This document shows, in pieces, positions 14,638 to 38,248 of a stretch of 64,000 nucleotides of DNA. Numbering within the stretch: position 1 is the stretch's first letter; every line of letters starts with the position of its first letter. Origin of the DNA: Candidatus Latescibacterota bacterium (GTDB lineage: Bacteria; Latescibacterota; UBA2968; UBA8231); NCBI GenBank assembly GCA_029941565.1, contig JAPYRN010000001.1, positions 97,255 to 161,254 on the forward strand, read 5' to 3'. The notes below the pieces were generated by a model, which ran no database searches, had not been told where the DNA came from, and saw only the letters and a list, made by a program, of their open reading frames with translations. Position numbers and translations under genes: made by a program.

Positions 14638-15462
14638 TTAATGGCTCGGCGAAAAATTTTCGCTCGCACTGGTGAAAACGGTTTCCGGGAGTTCGTCATA
14701 GACAGCGATTTCCGTATGACGACTCTGGCCAAAATCATCGTTTAGGAGAATATCTCCATAGGCCTGCCAGTTGCCCCAGGGTCGGATGAAGCGGGGCTCT
14801 TCGTCGGCCGCTTCGCGATAGAATGACCACTGGCGCACGAGGCTCTTGTCGATATCTACCCACACCTGGTATCGGTTCTGTGGTGTGCGCCCCACGTCTC
14901 TGAACGTCAGGTCGAGGATATGGGCGGGCAAACCCTCCTCCGTCATGCCGTCCCCGACATATTTCAGAGTTACCCCTGAGTCCTTGAGTTTGTATGGCAT
15001 GACGAGCCAATAGGAATCATTGACCCAGGCGCTATATGCCTTTTGCAGTCTTGCCTCCAGGGTGTCCGGATCGGTGACCTCCACACCTGCCTCCCAGGCA
15101 CGACCACTCTGATCATGAATGTTCGACAGCACCGTCAGATCACCATCCTCCAAACGATGGTTGCCCATCCACTTGTCCCAGACGTGGCGACGACCACCAA
15201 AGAAGCGCCAGGTGATATACCTCGTTCCGTCCCACGCAGCACGACCGCCAAGACGGTCCATGACACGGTCCGCCAGTTCGATGGCGCGCCGGTCGGATCC
15301 GAGTTCATCGAATCCAGCAGCGGCGGGATTGCCAACAACCGGGGGCGCCGGCGCCACTGCACTCTCGCCCGCGGGCCTTGTTCTTGCGGCGATCTTCGGA
15401 CCGCACGCCATCGCACTCAGCACGAGGGCGGCGAGCATGAGGAAGCTGACGAGTCGGATCAT
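14638..15462 (-). CDS. secreted/lipoprotein-like hypothetical protein
   Basis: N-terminal signal MIRLVSFLMLAALVLSAMACG with a lipobox-like AMAC|G. No recognisable domain. Confidence 0.4.
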   Translation of the reverse strand: MIRLVSFLMLAALVLSAMACGPKIAARTRPAGESAVAPAPPVVGNPAAAGFDELGSDRRAIELADRVMDRLGGRAAWDGTRYITWRFFGGRRHVWDKWMGNHRLEDGDLTVLSNIHDQSGRAWEAGVEVTDPDTLEARLQKAYSAWVNDSYWLVMPYKLKDSGVTLKYVGDGMTEEGLPAHILDLTFRDVGRTPQNRYQVWVDIDKSLVRQWSFYREAADEEPRFIRPWGNWQAYGDILLNDDFGQSRHTEIAVYDELPETVFTSASENFSPSH

Positions 15463-15478
15463 GGTTTCGTCTCCACTT

Positions 15479-17365
15479 TCAGGCCATGCGTATGGACTTC
15501 ACGTCCTTCTTGCTCAGTTGTACGCCACTCGCCTTCGCCCCCTGTATGGGATATTCGCTGATCGGGAACTGCTCCTCGAGCACGCGCAGGCGTGTCGCCG
15601 GTTTGTACTCCAACTCCACTGTCGCTTCGTTGTCCAGAGTGAACTTGAGGAGCGTGGCGCCATCAGGGACAAGTGCATAGGCGCGATTGAGGATCAATCC
15701 CCCGACCTTACAACGTTTGATCTTAATCGCCCCCTTCTTATCGCGGAAGACGACATTGAAGACCTGCTCCTTGTCGGGAAAACCGCAATGCAACATACCC
15801 TTCCCGATAAACAACTTTTCGGGCGCATCGACCATCGAATACGTGCCATCCTTGCGGATCACGAGAATTCGATCATACAGTGACACCTCGGCGATATTCG
15901 TACCCACCACCTGGTGGCCCAGGTATCCAGTGGCCTTGTCGTAACACAACTTCTGATCCCGTTTGGCCGCCTCACGCACATCCACCTGCTCAAATGAGGT
16001 AATCTCCGTACGCCGAACAAAATCCTCCCGATTCTTCTCGATCAGCCTTTCCAGGTAGCTGATCGTAAAAGGGACGATCTCCTTGAGATCGTGGCGGATC
16101 TGCTTGAGCCGCGACTTCAGATCGCGCATGTCTTTCTTGGCGCGCTCGATGTCGTAGAGAGAGATCCGGCGAATTGGGATGCGTAGCAGTGTGTCCACAT
16201 CCTCCCGCGTAATCTCGCGCTTGATCTCCTTGTGGTGCTCCTTCAGGCCATCAAATACAGCCTGCACAACACCCTCCTGCGTCTTCTGTTCTTCGATCCT
16301 CTGGTAGATCCGTTGCTCGATGAAGATCTGCTCCAGCGTCCGGGCATGGATCCGGTCTTCGATCTCCCCTTCTTCGACACGCAACTGCGCCTTGAGGATA
16401 TCGACGAGACGATCGACGTTGTGCTCAAGCACCTCGGTGACGGTCATGATCCGCGGCATGTCCCCGTCGATGACGAGCAACGCCACGGAGATCGACATCT
16501 CACAATCGGTGAAGGCATAGAGGGAGTCGACCACGTCAGCTGCATAGATACCACGGGGCAGCTTGATTTCGATCTCGACACTTTCGGCGGTGAAGTCCTG
16601 GATGGCGGCAACCTTCACCTTGTTCTTCCGTGCTGCATCTTCGATGGAGCTGATCAACGCTTCCGTCGTCGTGCCGTAAGGAATCTCGGTGACGACAATG
16701 CGTTTCTCGTCCGACGTATCCAACTTTGCCCGCACAAGAATCTTGCCGTTGCCATCCTCGTAGTTCGACACATCAACCATGCCCCCCGTCGGAAAATCAG
16801 GGAACACGGCAAAAGACTCATCCCGCATGTATCCGACCTGCGCCTTGAGCAACTCGATCAGATTGTGGGGCATGATCTTCGTCGTCATCGTCGGCGCGAT
16901 ACCTTCCGCCCCCTGGGACAACAACAGCGGGATTCGCACGGGCAGAACCACCGGCTCCTTGTTCCGCCCATCATACGATTCGACATACTCGGTAACCTTC
17001 GGATCGAAGATCACCTCCCGCGCCATCGGACTCAGACGGCACTCGATATACCGCGCCGCCGACGCCATGTCTCCCGTATAGATGTTGCCGAAATTCCCCT
17101 GCCTATCGATGGCGACCTCTTTGTTGGCCAGAACGATCAGAGCAGAAAAAATCGACGCATCACCATGCGGGTGATACTTCATACACTGCCCGACGACATT
17201 GGCCACCTTGTGAAAGCGCTCGTCATCGAGCTCATGCAGCGTATGCAGAATACGCCGCTGAACCGGCTTCAACCCATCATCAAGATGCGGAATCGCCCGC
17301 TCCTTGATCGCATAGGACGAGTACTCGATGTAGTTCTTGTCATAAAGCTGTTTTATGAAAGCCAA
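15479..17365 (-). CDS. type IIA DNA topoisomerase subunit A (GyrA/ParC-like, short C-terminal domain)
   Basis: GLKPVQRRIL and ASAARYIECRL (active-site Tyr context AAMRYTE) are present. Only 628 aa, so most of the beta-pinwheel CTD is absent. TTG start. Confidence 0.8.
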   Translation of the reverse strand: MAFIKQLYDKNYIEYSSYAIKERAIPHLDDGLKPVQRRILHTLHELDDERFHKVANVVGQCMKYHPHGDASIFSALIVLANKEVAIDRQGNFGNIYTGDMASAARYIECRLSPMAREVIFDPKVTEYVESYDGRNKEPVVLPVRIPLLLSQGAEGIAPTMTTKIMPHNLIELLKAQVGYMRDESFAVFPDFPTGGMVDVSNYEDGNGKILVRAKLDTSDEKRIVVTEIPYGTTTEALISSIEDAARKNKVKVAAIQDFTAESVEIEIKLPRGIYAADVVDSLYAFTDCEMSISVALLVIDGDMPRIMTVTEVLEHNVDRLVDILKAQLRVEEGEIEDRIHARTLEQIFIEQRIYQRIEEQKTQEGVVQAVFDGLKEHHKEIKREITREDVDTLLRIPIRRISLYDIERAKKDMRDLKSRLKQIRHDLKEIVPFTISYLERLIEKNREDFVRRTEITSFEQVDVREAAKRDQKLCYDKATGYLGHQVVGTNIAEVSLYDRILVIRKDGTYSMVDAPEKLFIGKGMLHCGFPDKEQVFNVVFRDKKGAIKIKRCKVGGLILNRAYALVPDGATLLKFTLDNEATVELEYKPATRLRVLEEQFPISEYPIQGAKASGVQLSKKDVKSIRMA

Positions 17366-21346: not shown

Positions 21347-22843
21347 ATGATGTCCACCGTCCGAGTTCGAGTCGCGCCCTCGCCAACAGGCGCACCCCAT
21401 GTGGGCACCGCCTACATCGCCTTGTTCAATCTGGCCTTTGCACGCAAACATGGCGGCCAGATTCTGCTCCGCATCGAGGACACCGACCAGGTGCGCTCAA
21501 AACCGGAGCACGAAGAGCGACTGATCTCGGCCCTGCGCTGGCTTGGGCTTGAATGGGACGAGGGACCAGACATCGGCGGCGACACGGGGCCCTTTCGGCA
21601 GAGCGAGCGTCTCGATCTGTATCGGCCACATGCGCAGCAACTCGTCGATGCAGGACATGCCTACTATTCCTTCGCCACCGCCGCTGAATTGGCCCAGTGG
21701 CGCGCCAGCGGACAGTCTTCCGGTGTGCCGGCTCCCTTCGATGTGGAGCGCGACGCCGATCCGGCCCAGGCTCGTGAGCGGGCCGAAGCTGGCGAGGACC
21801 ACGTGATTCGCATGAAGATGCCACGCCAGGGCATCTGCATCGTCGACGACATGCTGCGCGACCCGATCTCGATCGACTATGCCGGACTCGACGACCAGGT
21901 CTTGCTCAAATCGGACGGTTTTCCCACCTACCATCTCGCCGTCGTCGTCGATGATCACCTTATGGGCATCACCCACGTGATCCGTGGCGAGGAGTGGATC
22001 AACTCCACACCCAAACACCTGCTGCTGTATGAGTGGTTCGGTTGGGAGGTCCCACAGCACGCCCATCTGCCCCTGTTGCTGAACACGGATCGTTCGAAAA
22101 TGTCGAAACGACGCAATCCGACATCGATCGACTACTATCGGCGCGCCGGCTATCTCCCCTCCGCCCTGCTCAACTACCTGGCATTGATGGCCTACCCGCC
22201 AAACAAGGCCGCCGATGGCACGGAGCAGGAAAAGGAGCCATTTGCCGATCTCGTCAACCGCTTCGACCTGCAGCGGATCAGCCTTGGGGGCTCCGTCTTC
22301 GATCCGGAGAAACTGAACTGGCTGAACGGGCGCTACCTGCGCGAAGAGTTGTCGCCGGACCAGTTATTGACGGCACTTCGGGAATGGGCGTTGAACGATG
22401 ATTTCCTTGCCCAGGTGCTGCCACTGATGCAACCACGCATGGAGACCCTGGGTGATTTCATGCCCAGGTGCGCTTTCTTCTTCAGCCGGCGTGTCGAAGC
22501 ACAGATCGAGGACCTGCTACCAAAGGGTCGGGAAGCGGCGGATGTGGCAGCCTTGTTGCAGACGGCGGTGTGGTCCCTGGAGAATGTCGCGCCCTGGCAG
22601 GCAGAGGCTGTCGAGGCGGCGATCAAACGAACGAGCGAGTTCTGGGACTGGCCGATCCGCGACGTTACACGACCACTCTACACTGCGATCATGGGTCAAC
22701 CCATGGGGCCACCGCTGTACGAATCGATCGTCCTGCTCAATGTGGATCTTACGCGAATGCGCCTGCTCGAGGCAATTGACACCCTCGGGGGTCTGTCGAA
22801 GAAAAAAGCCAGGAAATTGGAGAAGGATTGGGGCGGAGCCTGA
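21347..22843 (+). CDS. gltX: glutamate--tRNA ligase
   Basis: RVAPSPTGAPHVGTAY (HIGH-class motif), LRIEDTD, KMSKRRNP (KMSKS). 498 aa. Confidence 0.85.
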   Translation: MMSTVRVRVAPSPTGAPHVGTAYIALFNLAFARKHGGQILLRIEDTDQVRSKPEHEERLISALRWLGLEWDEGPDIGGDTGPFRQSERLDLYRPHAQQLVDAGHAYYSFATAAELAQWRASGQSSGVPAPFDVERDADPAQARERAEAGEDHVIRMKMPRQGICIVDDMLRDPISIDYAGLDDQVLLKSDGFPTYHLAVVVDDHLMGITHVIRGEEWINSTPKHLLLYEWFGWEVPQHAHLPLLLNTDRSKMSKRRNPTSIDYYRRAGYLPSALLNYLALMAYPPNKAADGTEQEKEPFADLVNRFDLQRISLGGSVFDPEKLNWLNGRYLREELSPDQLLTALREWALNDDFLAQVLPLMQPRMETLGDFMPRCAFFFSRRVEAQIEDLLPKGREAADVAALLQTAVWSLENVAPWQAEAVEAAIKRTSEFWDWPIRDVTRPLYTAIMGQPMGPPLYESIVLLNVDLTRMRLLEAIDTLGGLSKKKARKLEKDWGGA

Positions 22844-22872
22844 TCTACGCTTCGGGGCCGCTTTTGGGATGA

Positions 22873-24579
22873 TTATTTTCTGTTCTGCAAATTCGCCCAG
22901 ACGTCGCGCAGCGTCACGGTACGGTTGAAGACAGGCGTCTCATCTGTCGAATCCGGGTCGACACAGAAGTAACCCAGTCGTTCAAATTGGCACGTCGTCC
23001 CCGTGCCCAGGCGTGCTGCCTCCGGTTCGATGTAACAGGTGGGTAGCACCTGCAACGAATCCGGATTAAGGTTGTCCAGCCAGTCCTCTCCCTCGGCAAC
23101 ATCGGTGGGATTCTCGACGCGGAACAGTCGATCGTACAGTCTGACCTCAGTCTGCACCGCGTGTGCCGCTGATACCCAGTGTAATGTCGCTTTCACCTTG
23201 CGCCCGTCTGGTGCGTCCCCACCCTTGGTCGCCGGATCGTAGCTGCAGCGCAATTCGATGACATTGCCGTTGACGTCCTTCACCACCTCTTCGCAGGTCA
23301 CAAAGTAGGCATAACGGAGTCGCACCTCCCGTCCCGGCGCCAGGCGGAAGAACTTCTTCGGCGGCTCCTCCATGAAGTCCTCCGCTTCGATCCACAGCTC
23401 GCGTCCGAAGGGAACCTTACGTATCCCCGCCGATTCGTCTTCGGGGTTGTTGACGGCGTCCAATTCCTCGCTCTCACCCTCGGGGTAGTTGGTGATCGTC
23501 AATTTGAGCGGATTGATCACCCCCATGACCCGGCGTGCGCTCTTGTTAAGCTGATCTCGAATGCAGAACTCCAGCAGCGACACCTCGACATTGTTCTCCC
23601 GCTTGGCGATGCCGACCTCTTTCCAGAATCGCCGGATCGCCTCGGGAGGGACACCGCGACGGCGCAAGCCGTTCAAAGTGGGCATCCTGGGATCGTCCCA
23701 GCCCGACATGTGCCCACTCTCCATCAACTGCAACAGGCGGCGCTTGCTCGTGACCGTGTAGGTGATGTTGCCACGCGCATATTCGATCTGCCGCGACGGG
23801 AAGATGCCGAGTTGCTCAATGAACCAGTCGTACAGAGGGCGGTGGTCCTCAAATTCCAACGTACACATGGAATGGGTCACACCCTCGATGGAGTCACCCT
23901 GACCGTGGGCCCAATCGTACATCGGGTAGATGCACCAGTCGTCTCCTGTACGGTGGTGGTAGGCGTGCAGGATCCGGTACATCACGGGATCGCGCAGGTT
24001 CACATTCGGTGACCCCATGTCGATCTTGGCCCGCAATACCTTGTCGCCATCGGCGAACTCACCGGCACGCATGCGCGTGAAAAGATCGAGATTTTCTTTC
24101 GGCGAACGATCGCGAAAAGGGCTGTCACGCCCGGGCTCAGTCAGCGTTCCACGCTGGGCACGGATCTCGTCGGCCGACTGATCATCGACATAGGCCAGAC
24201 CCTTACCGATCAGCTCACAGGACCAATCGTACAGCTGATCGAAGTAGTCCGAAGCGTAGAGCGCCTCGCCAAAGTCGAATCCAAGCCAGTGGATGTCCTC
24301 GATCATGGAATCGACGTACTCCTGCTCCTCCTTGACGGGATTTGTGTCATCGAAGCGCAGGTTGTAGCGTCCACCGAACTCCTCAGCGATGCCGTAGTTG
24401 ACGCAAATCGCCTTGGCATTGCCGATGTGCAAGTAAGCATTCGGCTCGGGGGGAAAGCGGGTGATCACTTCACTGTTGGTGCCGGCAGCCAGATCCGCGG
24501 CGATCGCCACGCGTAGAAAATCTCGGGGGCGGTCAGACGTATCAGCTGTCTCGGAGTTATCTGTCTTAGGACTCATCAT
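22873..24579 (-). CDS. glnS: glutamine--tRNA ligase
   Basis: [23 protein letters not shown] and LRFDDTNP match the GlnRS catalytic core; TVTSKRRL is the KMSKS equivalent. 568 aa. Confidence 0.8.
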
Positions 24580-24630
24580 GGACCTGTGGTAGTTAGTTGA
24601 TTGCAGGTGTGAGCCTGGAGCGAACCGGTG

Positions 24631-25563
24631 TCAGCGGATGCGCCAGGCGTCCTTCGCCGGCTGGAACTGCCCGGCGTCTGGCAACAATTGTCGCAGATGT
24701 CGTCCGCCATAGGCGAAACCCGCAAGGCCGGGCATGCCACGATCCTCGTTCTCCACATCGAGCACGTAGTTGTAGCCGGACTCGCTCAGGGCGTGGATCA
24801 CCGTCGCCCAGTTCAGATCCCCTCGGCCACAGACCCGATACTGCCACCACCAGTTGCCGATGACGCCCTGACGATAGCGCATGCGAGGGCTGACTTCACA
24901 ATCCTTCAGGTCGGCGAAGTACCAGCGGCCGGCGTACTCGCGGATGACATCCTCCGCCGGCATGATCCCCATCCAGACCCAATGGGAGGGATCACAGGAA
25001 AGCCCGATGGACTCATCCGGTACTGCGTCGAGCAGCTTGTCCCACATCTCCGGATTGCAGCCGATATTGCCCATGCGCACAGCGACATCCAGGGCGATGC
25101 GGATACCGAGTCCGCTCGCGTGTTCGGCCACCGGAGTGAACATCTCTTTGTAGCGTGCGACCAACTCGTCGCTGCGGTCCGACCCATTTCCAGGGGGCGA
25201 GGAGTACATGCCGTAGAAGGTGCCGTTGCGCACCGGACACCCGGAACCGGTCAGTACCACCGGACATTCCAGCAAAGCGGCGGCCTCGATGGCGCGCAGC
25301 AGACGCTCCTGTTCTGCACCCCGCTGGCTCTCGTCATCATCCAGCAGATTGCAGTGGGCGGTCAGACACGCCAGATAGATGTCATGCTGCGCCAGGCCAT
25401 CTCGTAGTTCGTTGGGGCCCTGATCGAGAATCCTGTTGGTGTCCGCCACGCCGCTGTCGGCGAGCCGGACGCAGTCGAAATCATTCGCCTTCGCCCAGCT
25501 GCCGCACTCGTCAAGACTCCAGTTGGTCTCTGCGCCTGCGTTGGTAAAAAATCCGATGTCCAT
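24631..25563 (-). CDS. sugar phosphate isomerase/epimerase (xylose isomerase-like TIM barrel) family protein
   Basis: 310 aa with alternating beta/alpha pattern and conserved acidic/His residues typical of the AP_endonuc_2 TIM barrel fold. Assigned by overall similarity only. Confidence 0.5.
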   Translation of the reverse strand: MDIGFFTNAGAETNWSLDECGSWAKANDFDCVRLADSGVADTNRILDQGPNELRDGLAQHDIYLACLTAHCNLLDDDESQRGAEQERLLRAIEAAALLECPVVLTGSGCPVRNGTFYGMYSSPPGNGSDRSDELVARYKEMFTPVAEHASGLGIRIALDVAVRMGNIGCNPEMWDKLLDAVPDESIGLSCDPSHWVWMGIMPAEDVIREYAGRWYFADLKDCEVSPRMRYRQGVIGNWWWQYRVCGRGDLNWATVIHALSESGYNYVLDVENEDRGMPGLAGFAYGGRHLRQLLPDAGQFQPAKDAWRIR

Positions 25564-25669
25564 ATTCGATGATCCGTCCTGTTGCTGATTGCAGTCGGTG
25601 GTTTAGATTCGGTCTGTTATTCCAAAGTGCTTCTGATCACCCGAAACAAACTAAGAAGAAACGAGAACC

Positions 25670-26896
25670 ATGGCCCTGCTGAACGAAAACTATCTCAAGC
25701 TCAAGGCCGGCTACCTGTTCCCTGAAATCGGACGCCGCACGGCAACCTTTGCCGAGGCCAACCCGGAAGCATCGATCATTAAGATGGGGATCGGCGATGT
25801 CGTACGGGGGGTTCCGCGACCCGTGATAGAGGCCATGAAACAGGCCTGCGAAGAACTGGCGCACGATGAAAGTTTCCAGGGGTATCCCCCGGCTCAAGGG
25901 CACGACTTTCTGCTGGAGAGCATCGCCGAGCACGAATTCGGCAGCCGCGGGGTTGCCGTCGCAACGGATGAGATCTTTCTGTCGGATGGCGCCAAGTGCG
26001 ACTCCGCCAACATCCAGGAGATCTTTGCCATCGATCAGATCGTGGCCCTTACCGATCCGGTGTATCCCGTCTACTGTGACTCCAACGTCATGGCAGGGCG
26101 CACCGGTGAGGCTGATCATGCCGGGCGCTACGAGGGTTTGGTCTACCTGCCATGCACGGCCGAAAATGGCTTCTCACCGGCATTGCCGGAGACCCACGTG
26201 GACCTCATCTACCTGTGTTCGCCGAACAATCCCACCGGTGCCGTCATGTCCAAGCAGGTATTGGCGAGTTGGGTCGAATATGCCCGGAGAGAGCAGGCGA
26301 TCATCATCTTTGACTCCGCCTATGAAGCCTACATCAGCGATCCTGAGATCCCGCACTCGATCTACGAGATCGATGGTGCTCGTGAGGTCGCCATCGAGAT
26401 GCGATCCTACTCCAAGACGGCGGCGTTCACCGGCGTGCGTTGCGCCTTTACCGTCGTGCCCAGGCAACTTCTCGGCAGCACGCTGAATGGCGCCGACATA
26501 TCGCTTCACGATCTCTGGAGCCGACGCCAGTCAACGAAGTACAACGGCGTCTCCTATCCGGTGCAGAAGGGCGCCGTTGCCTGCTACGGCCCTGAAGGTA
26601 AGGCTGCCATCCGCGATTTGGTCGGATTCTACATGGCCAACGCCGCCCTCATGAAGAAAGAATTGACCGCCGCTGGCTACATCGTCTACGGTGGCGACAA
26701 TGCCCCATATCTGTGGATCGTCTGTCCTGCCGGCAACGACAGCTGGGGGTTCTTCGATGTCCTGTTGCAGCAAGCCCATGTGGTCAGCACGCCCGGTGCT
26801 GGATTCGGCTCGGCCGGAGAGGGTTATGTGCGGCTTTCAGCCTTCCAACATCGCGACCGCGTGGAAGAAGCAATGGAACGGATCCGTCAGCTGTAA
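25670..26896 (+). CDS. dapL: LL-diaminopimelate aminotransferase
   Basis: N-terminus MALLNENYLKLKAGYLFPEIGRR is the hallmark DapL start. PLP aminotransferase class I fold with SYSKTAAFTG Lys region. 408 aa. Confidence 0.8.
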   Translation: MALLNENYLKLKAGYLFPEIGRRTATFAEANPEASIIKMGIGDVVRGVPRPVIEAMKQACEELAHDESFQGYPPAQGHDFLLESIAEHEFGSRGVAVATDEIFLSDGAKCDSANIQEIFAIDQIVALTDPVYPVYCDSNVMAGRTGEADHAGRYEGLVYLPCTAENGFSPALPETHVDLIYLCSPNNPTGAVMSKQVLASWVEYARREQAIIIFDSAYEAYISDPEIPHSIYEIDGAREVAIEMRSYSKTAAFTGVRCAFTVVPRQLLGSTLNGADISLHDLWSRRQSTKYNGVSYPVQKGAVACYGPEGKAAIRDLVGFYMANAALMKKELTAAGYIVYGGDNAPYLWIVCPAGNDSWGFFDVLLQQAHVVSTPGAGFGSAGEGYVRLSAFQHRDRVEEAMERIRQL

Positions 26897-27039
26897 CGCT
26901 TCCCCAAGCGGATCTTACACACCGTCTCTGTGCAGTCCACCCGCAACCGCGCATCCATCCGCTCAGCCCCGAACGACAATAATGTCGTTTTTCATGGCGC
27001 GCGGGACATTACTATAATGGCATAAATTTGAGAACTGAG

Positions 27040-27068
27040 CCAAACAGTCCTTGACTCTCGTCTAATTT
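27040..27068 (+). promoter_or_regulatory. putative sigma-70-type promoter in AT-rich spacer
   Basis: TTGACT - 17 nt - TACACT, about 85 nt upstream of the RHH ORF. The surrounding 150 nt are strongly AT-rich relative to the genome. Confidence 0.3.
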
Positions 27069-27152
27069 CCGAGTACACTATACGCCTTGCTTAATCAATA
27101 ATTAATAATTTCTTACCAATACCACCTATACTCCTTCATTACGTGAGTTCCC

Positions 27153-27371
27153 ATGTCCGCAACAGCAAAGCCCGAGAGTGATCGCGCCCGTCCCCGTACA
27201 TTTTCCTCGACAGACCGAGATTTCCAGATGTTGGAGGCGATCTCACGTTACCACGGCACCAGCAAGAGTGCCATGGTCACCGGCCTGATTCGGAAGGAAT
27301 TCTGGCGCGTCTTTCCCAATGGCACAGACACGGTCCCTCTGGATGCGGGGGCAAAGGTGAGCGAATCATGA
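27153..27371 (+). CDS. ribbon-helix-helix (CopG/Arc/MetJ-like) DNA-binding protein
   Basis: 72 aa. RTFSSTDRDFQMLEAISRYHGTSKSAMVTGLIRKEF fits the RHH beta-strand, helix A, helix B layout. Stop overlaps the nadA start (ATGA). Confidence 0.45.
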   Translation: MSATAKPESDRARPRTFSSTDRDFQMLEAISRYHGTSKSAMVTGLIRKEFWRVFPNGTDTVPLDAGAKVSES

Positions 27372-28345
27372 CGCAGGTCTCGCAGCCCATCCCCAACCAG
27401 TTCAATCACCTGCCAGAGGCGGAGTTGATCACCCAGATCAACCGACTGCGCAAGGAGAAGAACGCCGTCATCCTTGCGCATAACTATCAGATCCCACAGA
27501 TCCAGGATCTGGCCGACGTCACCGGTGATTCCCTCGGTCTGTCGATCGAGGCATCACAGACCGACGCCGATATCATCCTCTTCTGTGGTGTCCATTTCAT
27601 GGCCGAATCGGCCAAGATCCTCAGCCCGGGCAAGCGTGTCTTTCTGCCCCACCTGGGCGCGGGCTGCGCCCTTGCTGATTCGATCACGGTAGAGAGCTTG
27701 TATGAGTGGAAGGAACGGTACCCCGATCACAAAGTCGTCACCTATGTCAATTCGTCGGCTGAAGTAAAGGCAGAGTCCGATATCTGCTGCACCTCAGCCA
27801 ATGCCGTCTCCGTCGTGCGCAGCCTGGACACGGACAAGGTGCTGTTCACGCCGGACAAGAATCTCGCTCGCTGGGTGGCCGAGCAGGTGCCAGAAAAGCA
27901 AGTCATCGCCTACGATGGCGTCTGCCCCACACATGACGTGCTGCGGTATGCCAGTGTCGACCGCACTCGCACCGAATATCCTGACGCCGTTATCATCGCC
28001 CACCCCGAGTGCCGCGAAGACGTCATTGCCGCCGCCCACGAGGTCTGCTCGACGACAGGAATGCTCAGCGCTGTTGGCAGATACCCCGATGCCAAGACCT
28101 TCATCATCGCCACCGAAGAAGCGATGATCCACCAGTTACAGAAGCGCTACCCCGGCAAGGAGTTCGTTGCCGCAGATGGCTGCATTGGCTGCCGACTGCA
28201 CTGCCCTTACATGAAGGTCACAGGCCTGCAGGATGTCTACTTCTCCCTGGCGGACGAACGGTTCGAGATCGAACTCGACGACGATGTCATCGAAGGTGCG
28301 CGTCGAGCCCTGGATCGGATGCTTGCCGTGCCTCGGGACGACTGA
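27368..28345 (+). CDS. nadA: quinolinate synthase
   Basis: VILAHNYQIPQIQDLADVTGDSLGLS and conserved Cys ligands; 325 aa. Confidence 0.85.
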   Translation: MTQVSQPIPNQFNHLPEAELITQINRLRKEKNAVILAHNYQIPQIQDLADVTGDSLGLSIEASQTDADIILFCGVHFMAESAKILSPGKRVFLPHLGAGCALADSITVESLYEWKERYPDHKVVTYVNSSAEVKAESDICCTSANAVSVVRSLDTDKVLFTPDKNLARWVAEQVPEKQVIAYDGVCPTHDVLRYASVDRTRTEYPDAVIIAHPECREDVIAAAHEVCSTTGMLSAVGRYPDAKTFIIATEEAMIHQLQKRYPGKEFVAADGCIGCRLHCPYMKVTGLQDVYFSLADERFEIELDDDVIEGARRALDRMLAVPRDD

Positions 28346-28352
28346 GCTTAGT

Positions 28353-29390
28353 CTATTTTTTTCCAGGCTCCTTGAGTCGGCCCCAGCTGCTCATCTCCAC
28401 GGCGGTCGGACTCGTCGGGTCTGTGGCGATCTTGCCAAACATCAGCGATTGCCGTGACCACTCTGAGTTGGTGATCCGATAGCTCCACATGGGATCACCT
28501 TCGCCATCGCCATCTACGTCGAAGGCCTCGTTTGCCTGCGCCTCGTCGGCGGGAACATTCAGCTTGAAAAAACCGTCATCCGATCCAGTGAGCTCCACGT
28601 AGGATCGATACCCGAGACAGTTGTCACCTGTCACATCCACTCCGTGTTGGCGGGCAGCGGCGAAGAGTGACTCGGGGATAAAAGCGGTGAAGTTAGCCTG
28701 GCCTCCAGAGGCGGAGACCCCACGCGCTGCAAGACCGGTGGTAAAGCCGCTGATATCGGCGGGATCTCGCAGTTGTGGCAACTCGCTCAGGTTGAGCGGT
28801 TCGAGATCGGTCCAGACCATGTCGGTGATGAAGGTCGTGCCGCGAAAGTTGTACAGTTCGTCCGCCCCCTCGGCGACTTGCACAATCAGACCAAAGGCAG
28901 CGTCGAGATCATCCGGTTCGTTCGTTTCTGACAGGATGGGATCGACGATCGTCGCCGTCACCTGAAAGCGAGTCGGTGACAACACCCTGACGCCGACGTT
29001 GCCTGGCTGCGAGGCATCGGCGAGCATGGCGACAAAACTGATGTGATCCTGCTCTGCCTTGTCAAACTGCAGCACGAGTTTCGTCCCCGCCTGCAGATCC
29101 GAGCCTCCCAGCTCCATCTGTTCGATCGTCGGACCCTCCGCATCCAGCACCTGGGTCGCGAATCCGAAGAGATACACCGGACCCGTACCGGCGCCGGCCC
29201 CCGCGGGGTTTGAGGACCCAGGCAGGCCAAACTTGGCCAGACCGACACCGTCGGCGATCTCGGTAAATTTCCTCCCGTCGTAGGTGGAATTCGACGGCCG
29301 CCACACAATTGACCCGGGGCCTTGAGCCGAGACGGTGGCGGCAAATAAGACCAGCCATACACATGCGCCGCGTAACGGGAGTCTGAACAT
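28353..29390 (-). CDS. secreted hypothetical protein
   Basis: Start chosen at the internal Met giving signal peptide MFRLPLRGACVWLVLFAATVSAQG. No recognisable domain. Confidence 0.4.
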   Translation of the reverse strand: MFRLPLRGACVWLVLFAATVSAQGPGSIVWRPSNSTYDGRKFTEIADGVGLAKFGLPGSSNPAGAGAGTGPVYLFGFATQVLDAEGPTIEQMELGGSDLQAGTKLVLQFDKAEQDHISFVAMLADASQPGNVGVRVLSPTRFQVTATIVDPILSETNEPDDLDAAFGLIVQVAEGADELYNFRGTTFITDMVWTDLEPLNLSELPQLRDPADISGFTTGLAARGVSASGGQANFTAFIPESLFAAARQHGVDVTGDNCLGYRSYVELTGSDDGFFKLNVPADEAQANEAFDVDGDGEGDPMWSYRITNSEWSRQSLMFGKIATDPTSPTAVEMSSWGRLKEPGKK

Positions 29391-29497
29391 TGGATTCTCT
29401 CTCTTTTTTGGCATGATTTGCAGGTGTTGTGCACGTCCCTGACGATAACTTCTATATAGGACCGAAAGTTTCCGAGAGCCCCGGCGAAAGCAACACC

Positions 29498-30178
29498 ATG
29501 GCACAGTATCAGGACCGCGAAAAAGGCGACGAAGAAGAAGGTGAGGCCGAACTCCCGGCGATGCAGAAGATAGCGATTCTGTTCGTCGCTCTCGGCCAGG
29601 AGACCAGTGGAGAGGTGATGAAGTTCCTCTCCGACTACGAGATCGAAGAGATCACGCAGGCCGTGGCCAGTCCCAAGGCAGTCTCCGTCGAAATGCAGGA
29701 CAAGGTCCTCGACGAATTCGAGCCGCATCTGCTTGCCGGCGAGTGGGTGAGTCAGGGCGGCGTGGACTTCGCCCGTGGCGCCCTTGAGCGGGCCGTGGGG
29801 CCGCGCAAGGCGCAGGAGATCCTGGATCGCGTCGCCAGCACGGTCTCCTCTGGTTTCTATATGCTGAAAAATGTCGCGCCAGAACAAGTCGCCCCGTTCA
29901 TCAGCCATGAGCATCCACAGACCATCGCGCTGATCCTGTCTCAGTTGGACCCAGCCCAGGCCTCAGGTATTCTCGGCCAGCTGCCTGAGCGCATGCAGGC
30001 CGATGTCGCCTACCTCATCGCTGGTGGACTCAGCAACCGCGAGACCGCCGGCAGGTTGGCACTCAGTGTGCATACTATCGAAACTCACAGACAACATGTG
30101 ATGGACAAGCTGAACATCCATTCGGTGGCGGGACTAACGAAATACGCCATCGCGGAAGGACTGACACACATTGGCTAG
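29498..30178 (+). CDS. FliG N-terminal+middle domain fused to LuxR/GerE-type HTH (putative transcriptional regulator)
   Basis: Collinear with FliG residues ~1-200: KIAILFVALGQETSGEVMKFLSDYEIEEIT ... ISHEHPQTIALILSQLDPAQASGILGQLPERMQADVAYLIAGG, which includes the EHPQ motif. It is followed directly by LSNRETAGRLALSVHTIETHRQHVMDKLNIHSVAGLTKYAIAEGL (LuxR HTH). There is no FliG C-terminal torque domain. Confidence 0.65.
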   Translation: MAQYQDREKGDEEEGEAELPAMQKIAILFVALGQETSGEVMKFLSDYEIEEITQAVASPKAVSVEMQDKVLDEFEPHLLAGEWVSQGGVDFARGALERAVGPRKAQEILDRVASTVSSGFYMLKNVAPEQVAPFISHEHPQTIALILSQLDPAQASGILGQLPERMQADVAYLIAGGLSNRETAGRLALSVHTIETHRQHVMDKLNIHSVAGLTKYAIAEGLTHIG

Positions 30179-31034
30179 AGTAGGCTCAGGGGCATTCACA
30201 TATGACGTGGAGGAAGGCTGGGGTCAGCTGCCGGAGGGCATCGCCCTCGGCTGGGTTGCCGCCGTCGCCTGCGACAGCGATGACCGCGTCTACGTTTACA
30301 GTCGCAGTGATCTACCGATGATCATCTTCGATCGCGATGGCACCTTTGTCTCGACTTGGGGCATCGAATTTCTCGAAGATGCGCATGGACTGTTCATCGA
30401 CGGCGACGACAACCTGTGGTGCACGGAACGGGAGACACATTGTGTGCGACACTGCACGGCAGCGGGTGATCTGTTGATGACCATCGGTACGCCGCACAAA
30501 GCCGGCGCCACTGGTGCGCCATTCAACCTGCCGACGGATCTGGGCATCGACAGTCTGGGTTGCCTTTATGTCACCGACGGTTACGGTAATGCTCGCGTGC
30601 ATAAATATTCACCCAAGGGGGATCATCTGTTCTCCTTCGGCGAACCAGGCGTTGGCCCGGGGCAATTCGATCTACCCCACTGCGTTCGGGTCGATGCCGA
30701 CGACCGTGTGCTGGTGGCGGATCGGACAAACAACCGCATCCAGATTTTTGATACCGATGGCCGCTATCTGCAACAGTGGGGTGATCTGCGTCAGCCGGAC
30801 ACCATTCACATCGACGCAGAGGGCGTGATCTACGTCGCCGAACTGGAGCAGCGAGTCTCCATCCTGGACAGTTCAGGGGATGTGCTCGCCCGCTGGGGCT
30901 GTGGCGAACGTGTCGACAGACCGGGTGAATTCCTTGGGTGCCCCCATGGAATATGGACCGATTCGCGGGGTGATCTCTATGTCTCGGAGGTACAGACAGA
31001 CGGTCGCTTCCAGAAGTTCGTCCGCAGCCGGTGA
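30171..31034 (+). CDS. NHL repeat-containing beta-propeller protein
   Basis: Repeated motifs LYVTDGYGNARVHKY / VADRTNNRIQIFDTDG / IYVAELEQRVSILD, 287 aa. Confidence 0.6.
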   Translation: MARVGSGAFTYDVEEGWGQLPEGIALGWVAAVACDSDDRVYVYSRSDLPMIIFDRDGTFVSTWGIEFLEDAHGLFIDGDDNLWCTERETHCVRHCTAAGDLLMTIGTPHKAGATGAPFNLPTDLGIDSLGCLYVTDGYGNARVHKYSPKGDHLFSFGEPGVGPGQFDLPHCVRVDADDRVLVADRTNNRIQIFDTDGRYLQQWGDLRQPDTIHIDAEGVIYVAELEQRVSILDSSGDVLARWGCGERVDRPGEFLGCPHGIWTDSRGDLYVSEVQTDGRFQKFVRSR

Positions 31035-32010
31035 CCGATCCCGTTCTCATCACCGGCGCCAGTGGCTTTATCGGCCGACACCTGGTTCGTCGGCTCGCCG
31101 CCGACGGACTTGCCCTGCGTGCCCTCGTGCGTCCCTCAAGCGACGTCGCCGAACTGGAGCGCCTCGGTGTTGAACTCGTCGTCGGTGATGTCACCGACTG
31201 GACGGCCGTCAGTGCCGCCGTCAAAGGCTGTCGCCGCGTCGTGCACCTGGCCAACGTCTATTCCATGTGGGAACGCGACCCTTCCATCTACCGGCGCATC
31301 AACGTGGAGGGCACGCGGCGGGTCGCGCAGGCGGCGGCAGAGTCGGGGGTAGACCTGTTCCTGCACGTCAGCAGTGTCGTCGTCTTCGGCCGTCCTGATG
31401 AGGTCCCCTTTCGCGAGCGCTGTGCCCCTGGACCGGAGCGGTTCAGCGAATACGCCCGCACCAAGTTTGAAGCGGACCGCGTGGTCGAGGAATTCACCAT
31501 CAGCCACCGGTTGCCACTGGCCATCATCTATCCTGCTATGGTTCTGGGACCTGGAGATCCGAAGTCGTCAGGCCGCTACGTAGATGACATCGTCCATCGA
31601 CGGCTACCGATGGCCGTGTTCAGCGACAATGTCATGACGTGGGTCCACGTGCACGATGTCGCTGAGGCCATGGCGCGCCTGCTGGGCCGTCAGGACGCCG
31701 CCGGCGCCCGTTATGTGATTGGCCGCCACCGGCTGACGTGGCACCAGATCAACGAGGTGATTCGCGAAGTCAGCGGCGTACAGCCCCCTCGGCTCGAAAT
31801 GCCGGACTGGATGGCACGACTTACCGCCCGGATTCTTACCGGGCTGTCCACCATCACCGGTCACCCGCCCCACTGGGGACTGTCCGCCGATGCCGCTCGT
31901 ACCGTGACCAATAGTATCCAGGCTGACGGCACGCGGGCGGAGCGAGAACTGGGATTACAGTACACCGATATTCTCACGACAGTGGAGAATACCATTCACG
32001 GCACCGACGG

Positions 32011-32020
<10 letters not shown>
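31031..32020 (+). CDS. NAD-dependent epimerase/dehydratase (extended SDR)
   Basis: ITGASGFIGRHLVRRL and a downstream YxxxK; 329 aa. Confidence 0.65.
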
Positions 32021-33324
<1,304 letters not shown>

Positions 33325-34018: not shown

Positions 34019-34806
34019 GTCGCATCCTCGGGGGTCACATAGGCGGCGGTAATACCACCGTCGACGGTGAAACTCGTACCCGTCACATAGGAGGCCTCGT
34101 CTGAAGCCAGGTAGAGTACGGCGTTGGCGATCTCCTCCGCCTGCCCGAAACGACCCATCGGCACGTGCACGAGGCGGCGCTGTTTCTTGGCCTCGGTGTC
34201 GAGGTATTTCATCAACATCTCCGTGTGTTGGGGGCCGGGACAGAGGGCGTTGACACGGATGCCCTCACGAGCATGGATCACGGCCAGTTCACGGGACATG
34301 GCCAGCACGCCCCCTTTCGAAGCGGTATATGCCAGCTGCGGTGTCGCCGCACCGAGCAGGGCGACAAAGGAGGCCATATTGATGATCGACCCACCCCCGG
34401 CCCGGCGCAGTGCTGGGATGCCAAATTTGCAGCCCAGAAATACCCCCTTGAGGTTGATCGCCATCGTCAGGTCCCACACCCCTTCTTCGGTCTCGACTGC
34501 ATCCGCATCATCGATGTGGGAAATACCCGCGTTGTTGAACAGAACATGCAGCGCGCCATAGGAGGCTTCGGCGGCCTCGATCATGGCGGCACAGTCGGCG
34601 GCACGGGAAACATCGGCATGCACATACATGCCTCGACCGCCAAGCTGTTGCATCCGCTGCACGACATCCTGGCCGGCGTCATCGTTGACATCGGCGATGA
34701 CGACAGTGGCGCCCTCGCTGACAAAGCGCAGTGCCGTCTGGCGCCCGATGCCGTTGGCCCCTCCGGTGATCAGGGCGATCTTGCCCGCCAGGCGGGTGCC
34801 GCTCAC
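34015..34806 (-). CDS. SDR family oxidoreductase
   Basis: ALITGGANGIGRQTA and YTASKGG; 263 aa; 4-nt overlap with the HAD gene. Confidence 0.7.
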   Translation of the reverse strand: MSGTRLAGKIALITGGANGIGRQTALRFVSEGATVVIADVNDDAGQDVVQRMQQLGGRGMYVHADVSRAADCAAMIEAAEASYGALHVLFNNAGISHIDDADAVETEEGVWDLTMAINLKGVFLGCKFGIPALRRAGGGSIINMASFVALLGAATPQLAYTASKGGVLAMSRELAVIHAREGIRVNALCPGPQHTEMLMKYLDTEAKKQRRLVHVPMGRFGQAEEIANAVLYLASDEASYVTGTSFTVDGGITAAYVTPEDAT

Positions 34807-34843
34807 GCGGACACGGTGCAGGTAATGGTTGCCGTCACGTCGT

Positions 34844-36250
34844 TCAGCCGCGCTCGAAGTAGCGCGCCCGCTCCCAGTTGGTCACGGCTTGGTCTGCCTT
34901 ACGCTGTTCGGTTTGAAAGAAGTGCACATAGTGCTCGATGACATCCACACCGAAAGCATCGCGCAACATGGCAGAATTCGCCAACGCCGACGTCGCTTCG
35001 GCCAGATTGGCCGGTACGCGGGTGAGATCGGCGCCCTCGTAGACATCGCCGACAAACTCCGCCGGTGGCTCCGTGTGTTGTCGTATGCCATCCAGGCCGG
35101 CGGCGAGGGTTGCTGCCAGCGCCAGATACGGATTGGCGTCGGCACCCGGAATACGTGACTCGATACGCAGGGAGTCGCCGCTGCCCACGACCCGAAACCC
35201 AGCGGTCCGATTGTCCCGGCTCCAGGCGATCGCCGTCGGCGCCCAGGATTGGTAGACGTACCGTTTGTAAGAGTTGGGGTAAGGGGCATAAAAGGGCGCG
35301 ATCGCGCGGGTGTGGGCCATCCACCCACCGAGAAAGTGACGGAACGTCTCCGACTCGGAGCTCCCGTCGCCGTTAGCGAAAAGATTTGTCCGCCCTTCGG
35401 CATCCCACAGACTCACATGCAGATGTGCGCTGGAGCCGGCCAGGTCCGTATGCCACTTGGCCATGAAGGTCACCGAGCAGTCCTGCTGGATAGCGATCTC
35501 TTTGCAGCCATGTTTGAGCAGGGCGGCACGGTCCGCCATTTCCAGCGCCTCGCTATAGCGGAAGTTGATCTCATGCTGGCCGGGAGCCCACTCCCCCTTG
35601 CTGGACTCCACCGGCACACCCGAGGCGCTCATGTGACGCCGAACGGCGCCGTGATACCCTTCAGCTTTTGTTGCCGCCAGCAGATGATAGTCCTCGATGT
35701 AAGCGCCCCAGGTCTGCAACTCCTCATCATCGTACTTCTTCTTGCGTGCTTCGTCGTATGAGTCGTGGAACAGGTAGTACTCCAGCTCTGTAGCACATCG
35801 AGCCTGCAGTCCCACCTCGGCGAGTCGCTCGATCTGTGCCGTCAACAGTGTCCGGGGTGCCACCGCGACCGGTTCATGGTCTGGCCCCCGTTGCAGATCA
35901 CAGAACACGAGAGCCGAGCGCTCGAGCCAGTCTGCCCGGCGCAGGGTCGACCAGTCGGGCACACAGTGTACATCCCCATAACCCCGGTGCCAGTTGGCGA
36001 AGGCGTAGCCGTCGACGACATCCATTTCCATATCGACGGTGAGCAGATAATCGCAGGCATGCATACCGGCGCCCACCGTCTCCTCGAGGAAGAAGGAGCC
36101 GGTGACCCGTTTGCCCACGAGACGACCATAGAGGTCGGGGAAACAGACGAGAACCGTATCCACCTCACCGGTTCGGACCTGCTCCCGCAGCTCGTCGAGG
36201 GTTAACATTCCGTGCGTGGAGGAAGAAGGCATGAGGGTCAGTGTACGCAC
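34844..36250 (-). CDS. glutamine synthetase family protein (GlnA-like; possibly gamma-glutamyl-amine ligase)
   Basis: 468 aa with a GS catalytic-domain C-terminal region (…DLTRVPANLAEATSALANSAMLRDAFGVDVIEHY). Sits in an operon with catabolic enzymes, so the specific substrate is inferred only. Confidence 0.65.
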   Translation of the reverse strand: MRTLTLMPSSSTHGMLTLDELREQVRTGEVDTVLVCFPDLYGRLVGKRVTGSFFLEETVGAGMHACDYLLTVDMEMDVVDGYAFANWHRGYGDVHCVPDWSTLRRADWLERSALVFCDLQRGPDHEPVAVAPRTLLTAQIERLAEVGLQARCATELEYYLFHDSYDEARKKKYDDEELQTWGAYIEDYHLLAATKAEGYHGAVRRHMSASGVPVESSKGEWAPGQHEINFRYSEALEMADRAALLKHGCKEIAIQQDCSVTFMAKWHTDLAGSSAHLHVSLWDAEGRTNLFANGDGSSESETFRHFLGGWMAHTRAIAPFYAPYPNSYKRYVYQSWAPTAIAWSRDNRTAGFRVVGSGDSLRIESRIPGADANPYLALAATLAAGLDGIRQHTEPPAEFVGDVYEGADLTRVPANLAEATSALANSAMLRDAFGVDVIEHYVHFFQTEQRKADQAVTNWERARYFERG

Positions 36251-37579: not shown

Positions 37580-38248
37580 TTGGACATTGGCACGACGCTC
37601 ACCCGTTTCCTAGTCGAACAACGACGCCGCTTCCCCGGTGTCTCGGGCAGATTCACTGCCCTGCTCGAAGAGATCGCCACCGCTGCCAAGCTCATCGGTT
37701 CTGCACCCCGGTCGCCAGCAGTTGTGCGCTGGGTACATTATCTACGGCTCCAGTACCATGCTCTCGTGTATACCACGGGCTCCGGCGTCCACGGTTTCAC
37801 CCTCGATCCGACAATCGGTGAATTCCTCCTGTCCCACCATGACATCCAGATGCCGGAGCAAGGTACCATCTACAGCGTCAACGAAGCACATGCCCCTGGG
37901 TGGGGCCCGCGCGTGCGTGCCTTCGCTGACGGCCTGAAAGGAAGCGGGCGAGCGGCGCGTTACGTCGGCTCCCTCGTCTCCGACTTTCATCGGAATCTGT
38001 TGAAAGGGGGTCTGTTCCTCTACCCGACTGAAGAACGGCTGCCGGCGGGCAAGCTGCGGCTGGTCTACGAGGCAAATCCCCTCGGCTTCATCGCGGAACA
38101 GGCTGAGGGCTCAGCAAGCACAGGAACCGGGCCGATCCTCGATCTCGTGCCAGCGATGCATCAGCGCGTGCCACTCGCCATCGGCAGCCGCCAGGACATC
38201 GCCGACTACGAAGCGGCCCTCGCCGCACCCGAGGAAACAGGTCCATGA
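37580..38248 (+). pseudogene. fbp: fructose-1,6-bisphosphatase class 1 remnant (internal ~125-codon deletion plus local frameshift)
   Basis: The N-terminal 40 aa (TLTRFLVEQRRRFPGVSGRFTALLEEIATAAK) and C-terminal ~165 aa (ARYVGSLVSDFHRNLLKGGLFLYP...KLRLVYEANPLGFIAEQAEG) are FBPase-like. The segment with the DPLDGSSN metal-binding motif is missing. AGYIIYGSSTML is encoded in a different frame (37706-37765), and a CTCTC site at 37761-37765 restores the C-terminal frame. Confidence 0.55.

Follow-up and report, generated by a model that had tools for sequence, protein, structure and literature searches.

A FliG–LuxR chimeric gene of Candidatus Latescibacterota, very probably the young product of an in-frame deletion between neighbouring genes

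A stretch of 64,000 nucleotides (nt) from a Candidatus Latescibacterota bacterium (assembly GCA_029941565.1, contig JAPYRN010000001.1, positions 97,255 to 161,254 of the forward strand; hereafter the window) contains a gene that joins the amino-terminal part of the flagellar rotor protein FliG to the DNA-binding helix-turn-helix (HTH) of a LuxR-type response regulator. A first reading made from the letters of the window (the sequence-only reading) had asked whether a rotor-protein fold was here recruited as a transcription factor. The architecture is indeed real and rare, but no observation demonstrates a recruitment of the FliG part for regulation. Comparison with related genomes indicates instead that the chimera is very probably the young product of an in-frame deletion between two neighbours, an orphan fliG paralogue and a NarL-type regulator gene.

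Results

The parent genes and the deletion

Both parents of the chimera can still be found next to each other in relatives. On contig L059 the gene order is NadA, fliG (354 amino acids, aa), a PAS/HisKA_3 kinase (399 aa) and a regulator with a receiver (REC) and a GerE domain (232 aa), with xylA farther on. On L049 it is NadA, a divergent hypothetical gene, fliG, a kinase (608 aa), a regulator (220 aa), an epimerase and xylA, and on L063, L092 and a 35.8-kb Joint Genome Institute (JGI) contig it is kinase, regulator (220 aa), NHL, epimerase, xylA, HAD, SDR and further genes. L049, L059 and L092 have the PAS/HisKA_3 kinase gene, and the window lacks it. At the DNA level (blastn), window positions 28427-30021 correspond to 8934-10529 of L049 and positions 30013-30176 to 14098-14261; against L059, the blocks are 29525-30021 to 10034-10527 and 30018-30151 to 12890-13023. 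The stretch missing from the window amounts to about 3.6 kb relative to L049 and 2.4 kb relative to L059, and it comprises the 3' half of fliG (codon 173 on), the kinase gene, the receiver domain and helix 1 of the HTH. The fliG-derived part sits in its ancestral position, beside the divergent hypothetical gene and NadA.

At the break (marked by a slash), the fliG parent reads ...GCCTACC/GCATCGC..., the regulator parent ...CTGGCCC/TGATCGC... and the window ...GCCTACC/TCATCGC.... The exact microhomology is 1-2 nt, lying inside an imperfect GCC..C.CATCGC match, and the join is in frame. The intact regulators form an ordinary and well-populated family (P0233-P0249), whose best HTH identity to the window is 89%. 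From this arrangement we infer an ancestor that carried, on one strand, NadA, then (past the divergent hypothetical gene) an orphan full-length fliG, a PAS/HisKA_3 kinase gene, a 220-aa NarL-type regulator gene (REC plus LuxR HTH), NHL and epimerase genes. One microhomology-mediated in-frame deletion of about 3.6 kb then very probably joined ...LPERMQADVAY to LIAGGLSNRE....

The fliG part also resembles a second paralogue, the Wzz-adjacent fliG of related genomes: its last 252 nt are 97.6% identical to that copy and the preceding 198 nt only 86%, a contrast that points to gene conversion between paralogues. Contig L002 (1-1980), considered as a second independent genomic context for the fusion, was rejected. 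Its upstream gene and 5' part are 99% identical to the Wzz-adjacent paralogue, its junction and NHL gene are 99.4% identical to contig L001, and the crossover falls in the 252-nt stretch shared by both paralogues; judged from these matches, L002 arose by recombination or by chimeric assembly.

At synonymous sites, the window and L001 diverge by 0.04-0.07 in the chimera and the divergent hypothetical gene (28353-30178) and by 0.24-0.32 in NadA, epimerase, xylA and HAD, and GlnS is 99.4% identical between the window and contig L091. The low values may reflect a recombination tract, a sweep of the deletion allele or ordinary mosaic divergence. In L059, a DDE_3 transposase gene with HTH_23/HTH_32 (14387-15529, minus strand) lies between regulator and xylA, and the NHL and epimerase genes are absent; the transposase suggests that the region is prone to rearrangement.

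Distribution and reality of the fusion

A protein search covered 5.8 billion clustered proteins, and the best 120 matches were examined. Among these, FliG_N, FliG_M and GerE were combined only in P0001 (96% identical) and P0002 (94%); the remaining ones were ordinary FliGs (342-349 aa) that match the first 77% of the query at 75-90% identity. When 185,579 species were scanned, each through one genome, fliG loci and REC–HTH regulators came up and the fusion did not. Six loci from L066 to L085 (L066, L067, L077, L082, L083 and L085; apparent span residues ~110-222) were considered as independent FliG_M–HTH fusions and rejected, all being ordinary REC–HTH regulators or hybrid kinases. In metagenomes, a degenerate DNA pattern laid over the junction led to one further contig, L091, of 37 kb and 96.1% identical to window positions 22576-31098. 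The exact sequence of the window protein was not on record in a look-up.

The fusion is therefore carried by the window, L001, L002 and L091, with an identical junction in all four. These contigs are 93-96% identical, lie 4-6% apart in flanking genes, and come from separate assemblies of different samples. Since four diverged and separately assembled contigs share it, the junction is real DNA. It is true that long near-identical stretches among fliG paralogues could mislead assemblers, and L002 looks like such a paralogue join. However, a chimeric contig that joins fliG to a LuxR gene through an assembly or sequencing error is hardly credible, because the junction shares only 1-2 nt, far too little for a k-mer join, because it recurs across these samples, and because both of its flanks are syntenic with relatives.

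On this sequence evidence, the fusion is confined to one species-level population. The domain-architecture search proposed by the sequence-only reading thus bears out a real and rare combination of FliG with GerE, seen in two near-identical proteins among the best 120 matches, but the "FliG-LuxR regulator family" of which it spoke comes down to one allele in four contigs. Literature searches on FliG–LuxR or FliG–kinase fusions, FliG paralogues, and Latescibacteria together with FliG returned nothing relevant beyond general FliG structure papers, and the FliG–LuxR architecture is undescribed as far as our searches reach. Some Latescibacteria are stated in the literature to encode flagella.

Domains of the chimeric protein

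The mechanical open reading frame (ORF) starts with a GTG at 29429, and the ATG at 29498 (MAQ...) gives a product of 226 aa. All FliG homologues begin at the position of this ATG, so the start at 29498 is correct, as are the limits 29498-30178 given by the sequence-only reading. FliG_N is the domain that binds the C terminus of FliF. In the chimera this domain is complete (PF14842, residues 19-115, profile positions 2-98 of 104, E=2.7e-29, 102 bits; Pfam). FliG_M (PF14841, residues 128-175, E=7.9e-24, 84.1 bits) covers only positions 1-48 of the 76 in the profile, versus 1-71 to 1-74 in full-length paralogues. PMC3091841 divides FliG_M into helices n and A-D and treats helix E as the linker. 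The chimera is cut inside helix D, the last one, and the end of this helix, helix E, ARM_C and the C-terminal torque subdomain are all gone. In a search of solved structures, residues 20-175 align with Salmonella FliG 5-162 (8umd_B). The NCBIfam fliG equivalog model TIGR00207 matches residues 17-175 on model positions 7-167 of 338, with 155.8 bits against a curated cut-off of 226.7; an intact paralogue (L042) scores 350.3 bits.

EHPQR is a FliM-binding motif, the fifth residue of which is R179 in Vibrio; the R179H mutant of that organism is Fla- (PMC6290876). In the chimera, Leu173 stands in place of this Arg (Salmonella R160), which is lost exactly at the junction. After residue 172 the protein continues as response-regulator HTH sequence. 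GerE (PF00196) matches residues 168-217 at E=3.3e-10 (profile positions 8-57 of 57; 39.9 bits against a gathering threshold of 23.5), and the best sequence match of the HTH part among solved structures is the LOV–HTH protein EL222 (8a5r, residues 159-222). The first helix proper to the HTH is deleted and FliG helix D lies in its place, with a one-residue insertion. Pfam gave no match in the chimera to the FliG_C torque domain (PF01706), nor to the receiver domain (Response_reg, PF00072) that the intact parent regulators have.

That the N-terminal part is an MgtE_N-type or generic ARM-repeat domain rather than FliG was considered and rejected as practically negligible: MgtE_N (PF03448) matches weakly at residues 139-170 (E=1.5e-4), its 22.6 bits lie below the cut-off of 25.9 and far below the 102 and 84 bits of FliG_N and FliG_M, the part is 75-90% identical to full-length FliGs numbering in the hundreds, and full-length paralogues pass the TIGR00207 cut-off (350 bits). 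The FliG, MgtE_N and GerE profiles thus side with the sequence-only reading on the identity of the fold, and the EHPQ motif it reported is there, at residues 138-141, with Leu173 at the fifth position of EHPQR. Its collinearity with the first ~200 residues of FliG holds as far as residue 172, where it ends. Its GerE/LuxR HTH does replace the FliG C-domain, with GerE above threshold and PF01706 unmatched, but helix 1 of this HTH is missing. Nor is the N+M module of FliG intact, since the last FliG_M helix is cut and the EHPQR Arg is gone. Coordinates are collected in Table 1.

Table 1. The chimera, its parts and its neighbours in the window, with related fliG loci on other contigs
Feature	Position	Strand	Basis
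Chimeric ORF, 226 aa, FliG (1-172)::NarL-type regulator HTH (173-226), stop codon included	29498..30178	+	Sequence, Pfam, NCBIfam, protein search
fliG-derived part, codons 1-172; FliG_N (residues 19-115) and FliG_M helices to two-thirds of helix D (128-172)	29498..30013	+	blastn block window 28427-30021 = L049 8934-10529; Pfam; Salmonella FliG 5-159
Tract of the fliG part with 97.6% identity to the Wzz-adjacent fliG copy in related genomes (L007)	29761..30012	+	Nucleotide comparison
EHPQ motif (E138 H139 P140 Q141) of the FliM-binding EHPQR surface	29909..29920	+	Sequence; motif role PMC6290876
Deletion junction TAC (Y172) / CTC (L173) ATC GC; both parents align across 30013-30021	30011..30021	+	DNA alignment of parents
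Response-regulator-derived part, LuxR/GerE HTH helices 2-4 (LIAGGLSNRETAGRLALSVHTIETHRQHVMDKLNIHSVAGLTKYAIAEGLTHIG), 87-89% identical to C termini of intact 220-aa NarL-family regulators	30014..30178	+	Pfam, DNA blocks, regulator alignment
NHL-repeat beta-propeller gene; start overlaps chimera stop by 8 nt	30171..31034	+	ORFs, Pfam; relatives
NAD-dependent epimerase/dehydratase gene; overlaps NHL by 4 nt	31031..32020	+	ORFs, Pfam; relatives
Intergenic region inherited from the fliG paralogue, divergent; presumed promoter of the chimera	29307..29497	.	Sequence, relatives
Conserved hypothetical gene, divergent from the chimera; adjoins full-length fliG paralogue in L049 too	28353..29306	-	Synteny
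NadA (quinolinate synthase), left synteny anchor common to L001, L049, L059, L092	27368..28345	+	Synteny
FliG–kinase hybrid loci (other contigs)	L095 6432-12691; L096 6122-17627; L055 8543-10801; L057 9584-12676		
fliG paralogue loci by genome (genomes separated by semicolons): L012, L017, L018 (one 3.18-Mb contig); L014, L015, L021, L026; L013, L016, L049, L056; L030, L034, L040			

Predicted fold of the HTH part

Modelling of the whole chimera with AlphaFold2 (AF2) on 11 near-identical rows gave a mean predicted local distance difference test score (pLDDT) of 50.5; this model was unusable and was not searched. MAFFT alignments of full-length FliGs with regulators stacked REC residues on FliG columns and C-terminal FliG residues on HTH columns, and with trimmed fragments the HTH was placed on FliG_N or ARM_M; these mixed alignments were not used for prediction. 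We modelled residues 150-226 (77 residues) on an alignment of 69 intact regulators, which gave four helices (164-175, 180-187, 191-205 and 210-220) at a mean pLDDT of 71.7. Foldseek matched this model to LiaR (4wt0_A; 63/66 columns, template-modelling score 0.79) and also to NarL-C, DosR-C, VraR-C, DegU, GerE and EL222, all whole LuxR-type DNA-binding domains. As the regulator contributes only 54 residues, it is the FliG-derived helix that is modelled as helix 1. The two joined helices are indeed alike, L-P-E-R-M-Q-A-D-V-A-Y-(R-I-A) in FliG and L-S-T-R-E-R-Q-V-L-A-(L-I-A) in the regulator, and by this likeness FliG helix D can probably stand in for the lost HTH helix 1. A four-helix LuxR-type domain may then still form.

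MAFFT repeatedly set LuxR HTH fragments (LSTRERQVLALIAGGLS...) on FliG_N (ELPAMQKIAILFVALGQ...) or on ARM_M (ISHEHPQTIALILSQLD...). FliG helices thus show a local sequence likeness to LuxR helix 1 and the turn, maybe coincidental, and it is the same likeness that the junction exploits.

Selection on the chimeric allele

Between the window and L001, the chimera differs by 10 nonsynonymous and 6 synonymous substitutions (Nd=10, Sd=6), and its ratio of nonsynonymous to synonymous differences per site (pN/pS) is 0.50, compared with 0.07-0.17 for six neighbouring genes. The difference from the neighbours is significant by Fisher's test (p=0.0085), and the value is not distinguishable from neutrality (p=0.14). 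These counts indicate that selection on the chimera is relaxed relative to the neighbouring genes. Four replacements are private to the window allele and fall at otherwise conserved sites (Q76P, M89V, D185G and R192H); the latter two lie in the HTH, R192H at the start of the recognition helix. In the L091 allele, five codons are cleanly deleted, in frame, from the acidic N-terminal tail. Too little time has passed since the event for decay at conserved sites to become visible. The chimeric ORF is under weak constraint and may be in the course of being lost.

fliG paralogues and FliG–kinase hybrids in the clade

The clade is Latescibacterota/Gemmatimonadota-like, and its metagenome-assembled genomes (MAGs) are labelled Candidatus Latescibacterota or Gemmatimonadetes. 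In these genomes fliG is multi-copy and dispersed, with 2-4 full-length copies in a single MAG. The paralogues are ORFs of 342-362 aa with a strongly conserved C terminus, pass the fliG equivalog cut-off, and resemble one another (76-92% nt identity) only within the coding sequence of ~1 kb. They have non-flagellar neighbours (LptF/G, SelA, a LysM amidase, enolase, APH, PCMT, Wzz/Wzy and NadA), and fliF or fliH was not found beside any of about 50 fliG loci. One context, LptFG, two unknown genes, fliG and SelA, is kept in about 10 genomes.

Several of these paralogues are damaged. In L003-L006 (10001-10507; 5 contigs), a 168-aa product ending ...ERMQAAVTFS lies before Wzy_C, the 3' half of the gene being deleted; in L007 (10001-11083), the 3' end of a 360-aa copy is fused to a glycosyltransferase fragment; and in another lineage (L008-L011; L008 10001-11034; 8 contigs), a 1-nt deletion splits FliG into 182 and 163 aa. 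Three fliG lesions, the window junction included, lie within about 10 codons of helix D, a clustering that may be due to chance, to a hotspot, or to the survival of lesions at a domain boundary. P0003, a FliG of 200 aa from a 620-kb contig, was rejected as a further truncation, as that long-read assembly is ridden with frameshifts and neighbouring genes are split too.

The same clade encodes hybrid histidine kinases of the architecture FliG_N+FliG_M(+ARM_C)–HisKA–HATPase–REC (P0121-P0128), 41-55% identical over 80-99% of the query. In these proteins FliG_M is complete and the break lies at an MFxF-type hinge after ARM_C. The hybrid genes adjoin FliM, several FliN paralogues, an N-extended FliG (536 aa) and a REC–SpoIIE phosphatase; other neighbours are STAS/HATPase_c_2 partner-switching (anti-sigma-type) genes, a PAS–cyclase or a sigma-54 activator. 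Neither fliF, fliI, flhA nor motAB was found within 10 kb of the hybrid loci. Judged from its sequences, the FliG–kinase hybrid family is old and conserved, and no description of the Latescibacterota hybrids was found in the literature searched. The gene content of the FliM/FliN/FliG–kinase clusters suggests a switch-complex-like assembly wired to signalling.

Gene neighbourhood in the window

The chimera is, as the sequence-only reading had it, the first gene of a unit with the NHL and epimerase genes, with overlaps of 8 nt and 4 nt, and the same order follows the intact regulator in relatives, where the 8-nt overlap is the same. Its statement that the window holds no other flagellar genes is also borne out, with no flagellar family found in the 46 ORFs covered out of the 59 that reach 110 aa; neither fliF nor fliH adjoins the chimera. 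The divergent hypothetical gene and the conserved unknown neighbours of fliG paralogues have no Pfam or NCBIfam match. A promoter and terminator scan of 29200-32200 gave counts equal to shuffle expectation, no better than chance. Upstream of the chimera start, the octamer ATAGGACC occurs once in the window (29456-29463) and in four perfect tandem copies in L001 (2752-2783), a copy-number variation in the presumed promoter region.

Relative to an unfused relative, three other genes of the window are truncated or missing. FBPase (37580-38245) is a 222-aa fragment without most of its N-domain, a REC-only gene is lacking between epimerase and xylA (32020-32011), and a Peptidase_C26/GATase gene is lacking between SDR and GlnA (34806-34847). 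By this comparison the window lineage has undergone several deletions. Farther away, a 185-aa ORF (3961-4515, minus strand) has AAA_lid_14 as its single Pfam match, and it may be what is left of a sigma-54 enhancer-binding protein after loss of REC and AAA+ core.

Discussion

A receiver-less DNA binder and the evidence against it

The main consequence of the event would be the loss of a two-component system. Phosphorylation control is gone, because both the receiver domain and the cognate kinase gene are deleted. GerE itself, like the C-terminal domains of NarL/FixJ regulators, needs no receiver domain to bind DNA. The chimera would be transcribed from the promoter of the fliG paralogue, together with the NHL and epimerase genes, and its product, if active, would be a LuxR-type DNA binder outside phosphorylation control. 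The FliG N/M portion would then be a passenger or at most an oligomerising appendage. We regard this reading, a receiver-less and unregulated DNA binder carrying a FliG passenger, as the likeliest activity if the protein is active at all, and as an evenly balanced call overall.

Several observations weigh against it. All four sampled contigs of the population are fused and no unfused allele was found, which would also fit a selected allele. The open frame is kept in all four alleles, including the one with an in-frame deletion. Of 76 FliG N/M columns with conservation of 97% or more, only 1-2 are changed in the fused alleles, within the range of intact FliGs, so that no FliG decay is seen. The break lies near the end of the last FliG_M helix, close to the hinge between the M domain and helix E. 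The old FliG N+M–kinase family of the clade means that a functional FliG input domain is not far-fetched. In addition, the selection test is based on 16 substitutions, and the AF2 model of the HTH is biased toward the canonical fold by its alignment of intact regulators.

An inert by-product

The main rival to the DNA-binder reading is that the ORF is dead, left over from a deletion that knocked out a redundant fliG paralogue together with a two-component system, with an unstable or inert protein whose frame is open only because the event is recent. We think this rather unlikely, although much agrees with it. The pN/pS of the chimera is that of a gene not distinguishable from a neutral one, the window allele has changed at four otherwise conserved sites, and the cut helix D must serve two domains at once. 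Sister fliG paralogues of close relatives are also truncated by deletions (the 168-aa product and the glycosyltransferase fusion described above), and there are the other deletions and truncations of the window lineage; taken together, the paralogue lesions and the missing or truncated window genes speak for decay by deletion. Against this rival, every allele has kept an intact frame, one of them despite an in-frame indel, conserved FliG sites show no excess of changes, the HTH part is modelled as a complete four-helix domain, and the 8-nt translational overlap with NHL is kept. These points are not decisive, since at 16 substitutions an open frame is expected under neutrality too.

A rotor-linked regulator

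It is also conceivable that the chimera works as a one-component regulator linked to the rotor. FliG_N would still bind the FliF C terminus, FliG_M would dock on FliM or on other FliG paralogues, or both, and the HTH would be held back or set free depending on how far a FliG/FliM/FliN ring has assembled, so that transcription of NHL–epimerase, or of other genes, would be coupled to it. Such a protein would be a one-component analogue of the FliG–kinase hybrids of the clade and of the Campylobacter FlgS checkpoint. We consider a working regulator of this kind improbable. FliG_N is complete, EHPQ is present, the break is near a domain boundary, and the fusion is fixed in the four contigs sampled. 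The clade moreover encodes FliM and FliN paralogues with the conserved FliG_N+FliG_M–HisKA–HATPase–REC kinases (41-55% identity) beside them, and in C. jejuni the FliF/FliG rotor is required for activation of the FlgS kinase (PMC3760246). The hybrids are a precedent within the clade for the use of FliG N/M as a signalling input, and this keeps the idea alive at low probability. Against it, the Arg of the FliM-binding EHPQR is lost exactly at the junction, and mutation of this very residue in Vibrio (R179H) is Fla- (PMC6290876). The fusion was found in one species-level population, with no independent or older occurrence, constraint on it is relaxed, a chance deletion between neighbours fully explains its origin, and no flagellar gene was found in the 46 of 59 window ORFs covered.

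Comparison with known systems

Residues 1-172 of the chimera are a direct copy of a clade-typical FliG, with FliG_N, EHPQ, and FliG_M helices n, A-C and most of D. Unlike FliG, the chimera is without the end of helix D, helix E, ARM_C and the torque subdomain, has Leu for the Arg of EHPQR, falls below the TIGR00207 cut-off and has no flagellar neighbours. With NarL/FixJ regulators it shares an HTH 87-89% identical over residues 173-226 as well as the same place and 8-nt overlap before NHL–epimerase, but it has no receiver domain, linker, HTH helix 1 or cognate PAS/HisKA_3 kinase gene. If active, it would resemble receiver-less LuxR-type proteins (GerE, the LOV–HTH protein EL222, LuxR solos and MalT-type proteins), in which the four-helix domain stands alone or behind a domain other than REC; in contrast to these, its N-terminal domain is a rotor-protein fragment and its conservation is seen in one population only.

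The FliG–kinase hybrids belong to the same clade and also fuse a FliG N/M module minus the torque domain to a signalling output. These hybrids are, however, old, with a complete FliG_M and ARM_C, a kinase output and FliM/FliN neighbours, none of which the chimera has. In the FlgS/FlgR checkpoint of C. jejuni, transcription is coupled to FliF/FliG rotor assembly, and the kinase is a separate rotor-sensing protein (PMC3760246). This checkpoint is an analogy for the rotor-linked view only.

Significance

The chimera offers a clean and datable natural case of a new domain architecture, very probably born of one microhomology-mediated in-frame deletion, with both parents and both flanks still visible in relatives. 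In the predicted fold, one parent supplies the helix that takes the place of the deleted helix 1 in the DNA-binding domain of the other. The event also converted a two-component system into a receiver-less LuxR-type protein. A FliG-based family of transcription factors is not established by this case. If the rotor-linked view were true, the chimera would be the newest case of a clade habit of using FliG N/M as a signalling input, and a new regulator from a single deletion, caught in the act. The context in the clade may matter more, namely dispersed intact fliG paralogues together with conserved FliG–kinase hybrids beside FliM/FliN and partner-switching genes. If a switch-complex-like assembly is indeed wired to signalling there, roles of rotor proteins outside torque generation would become testable.

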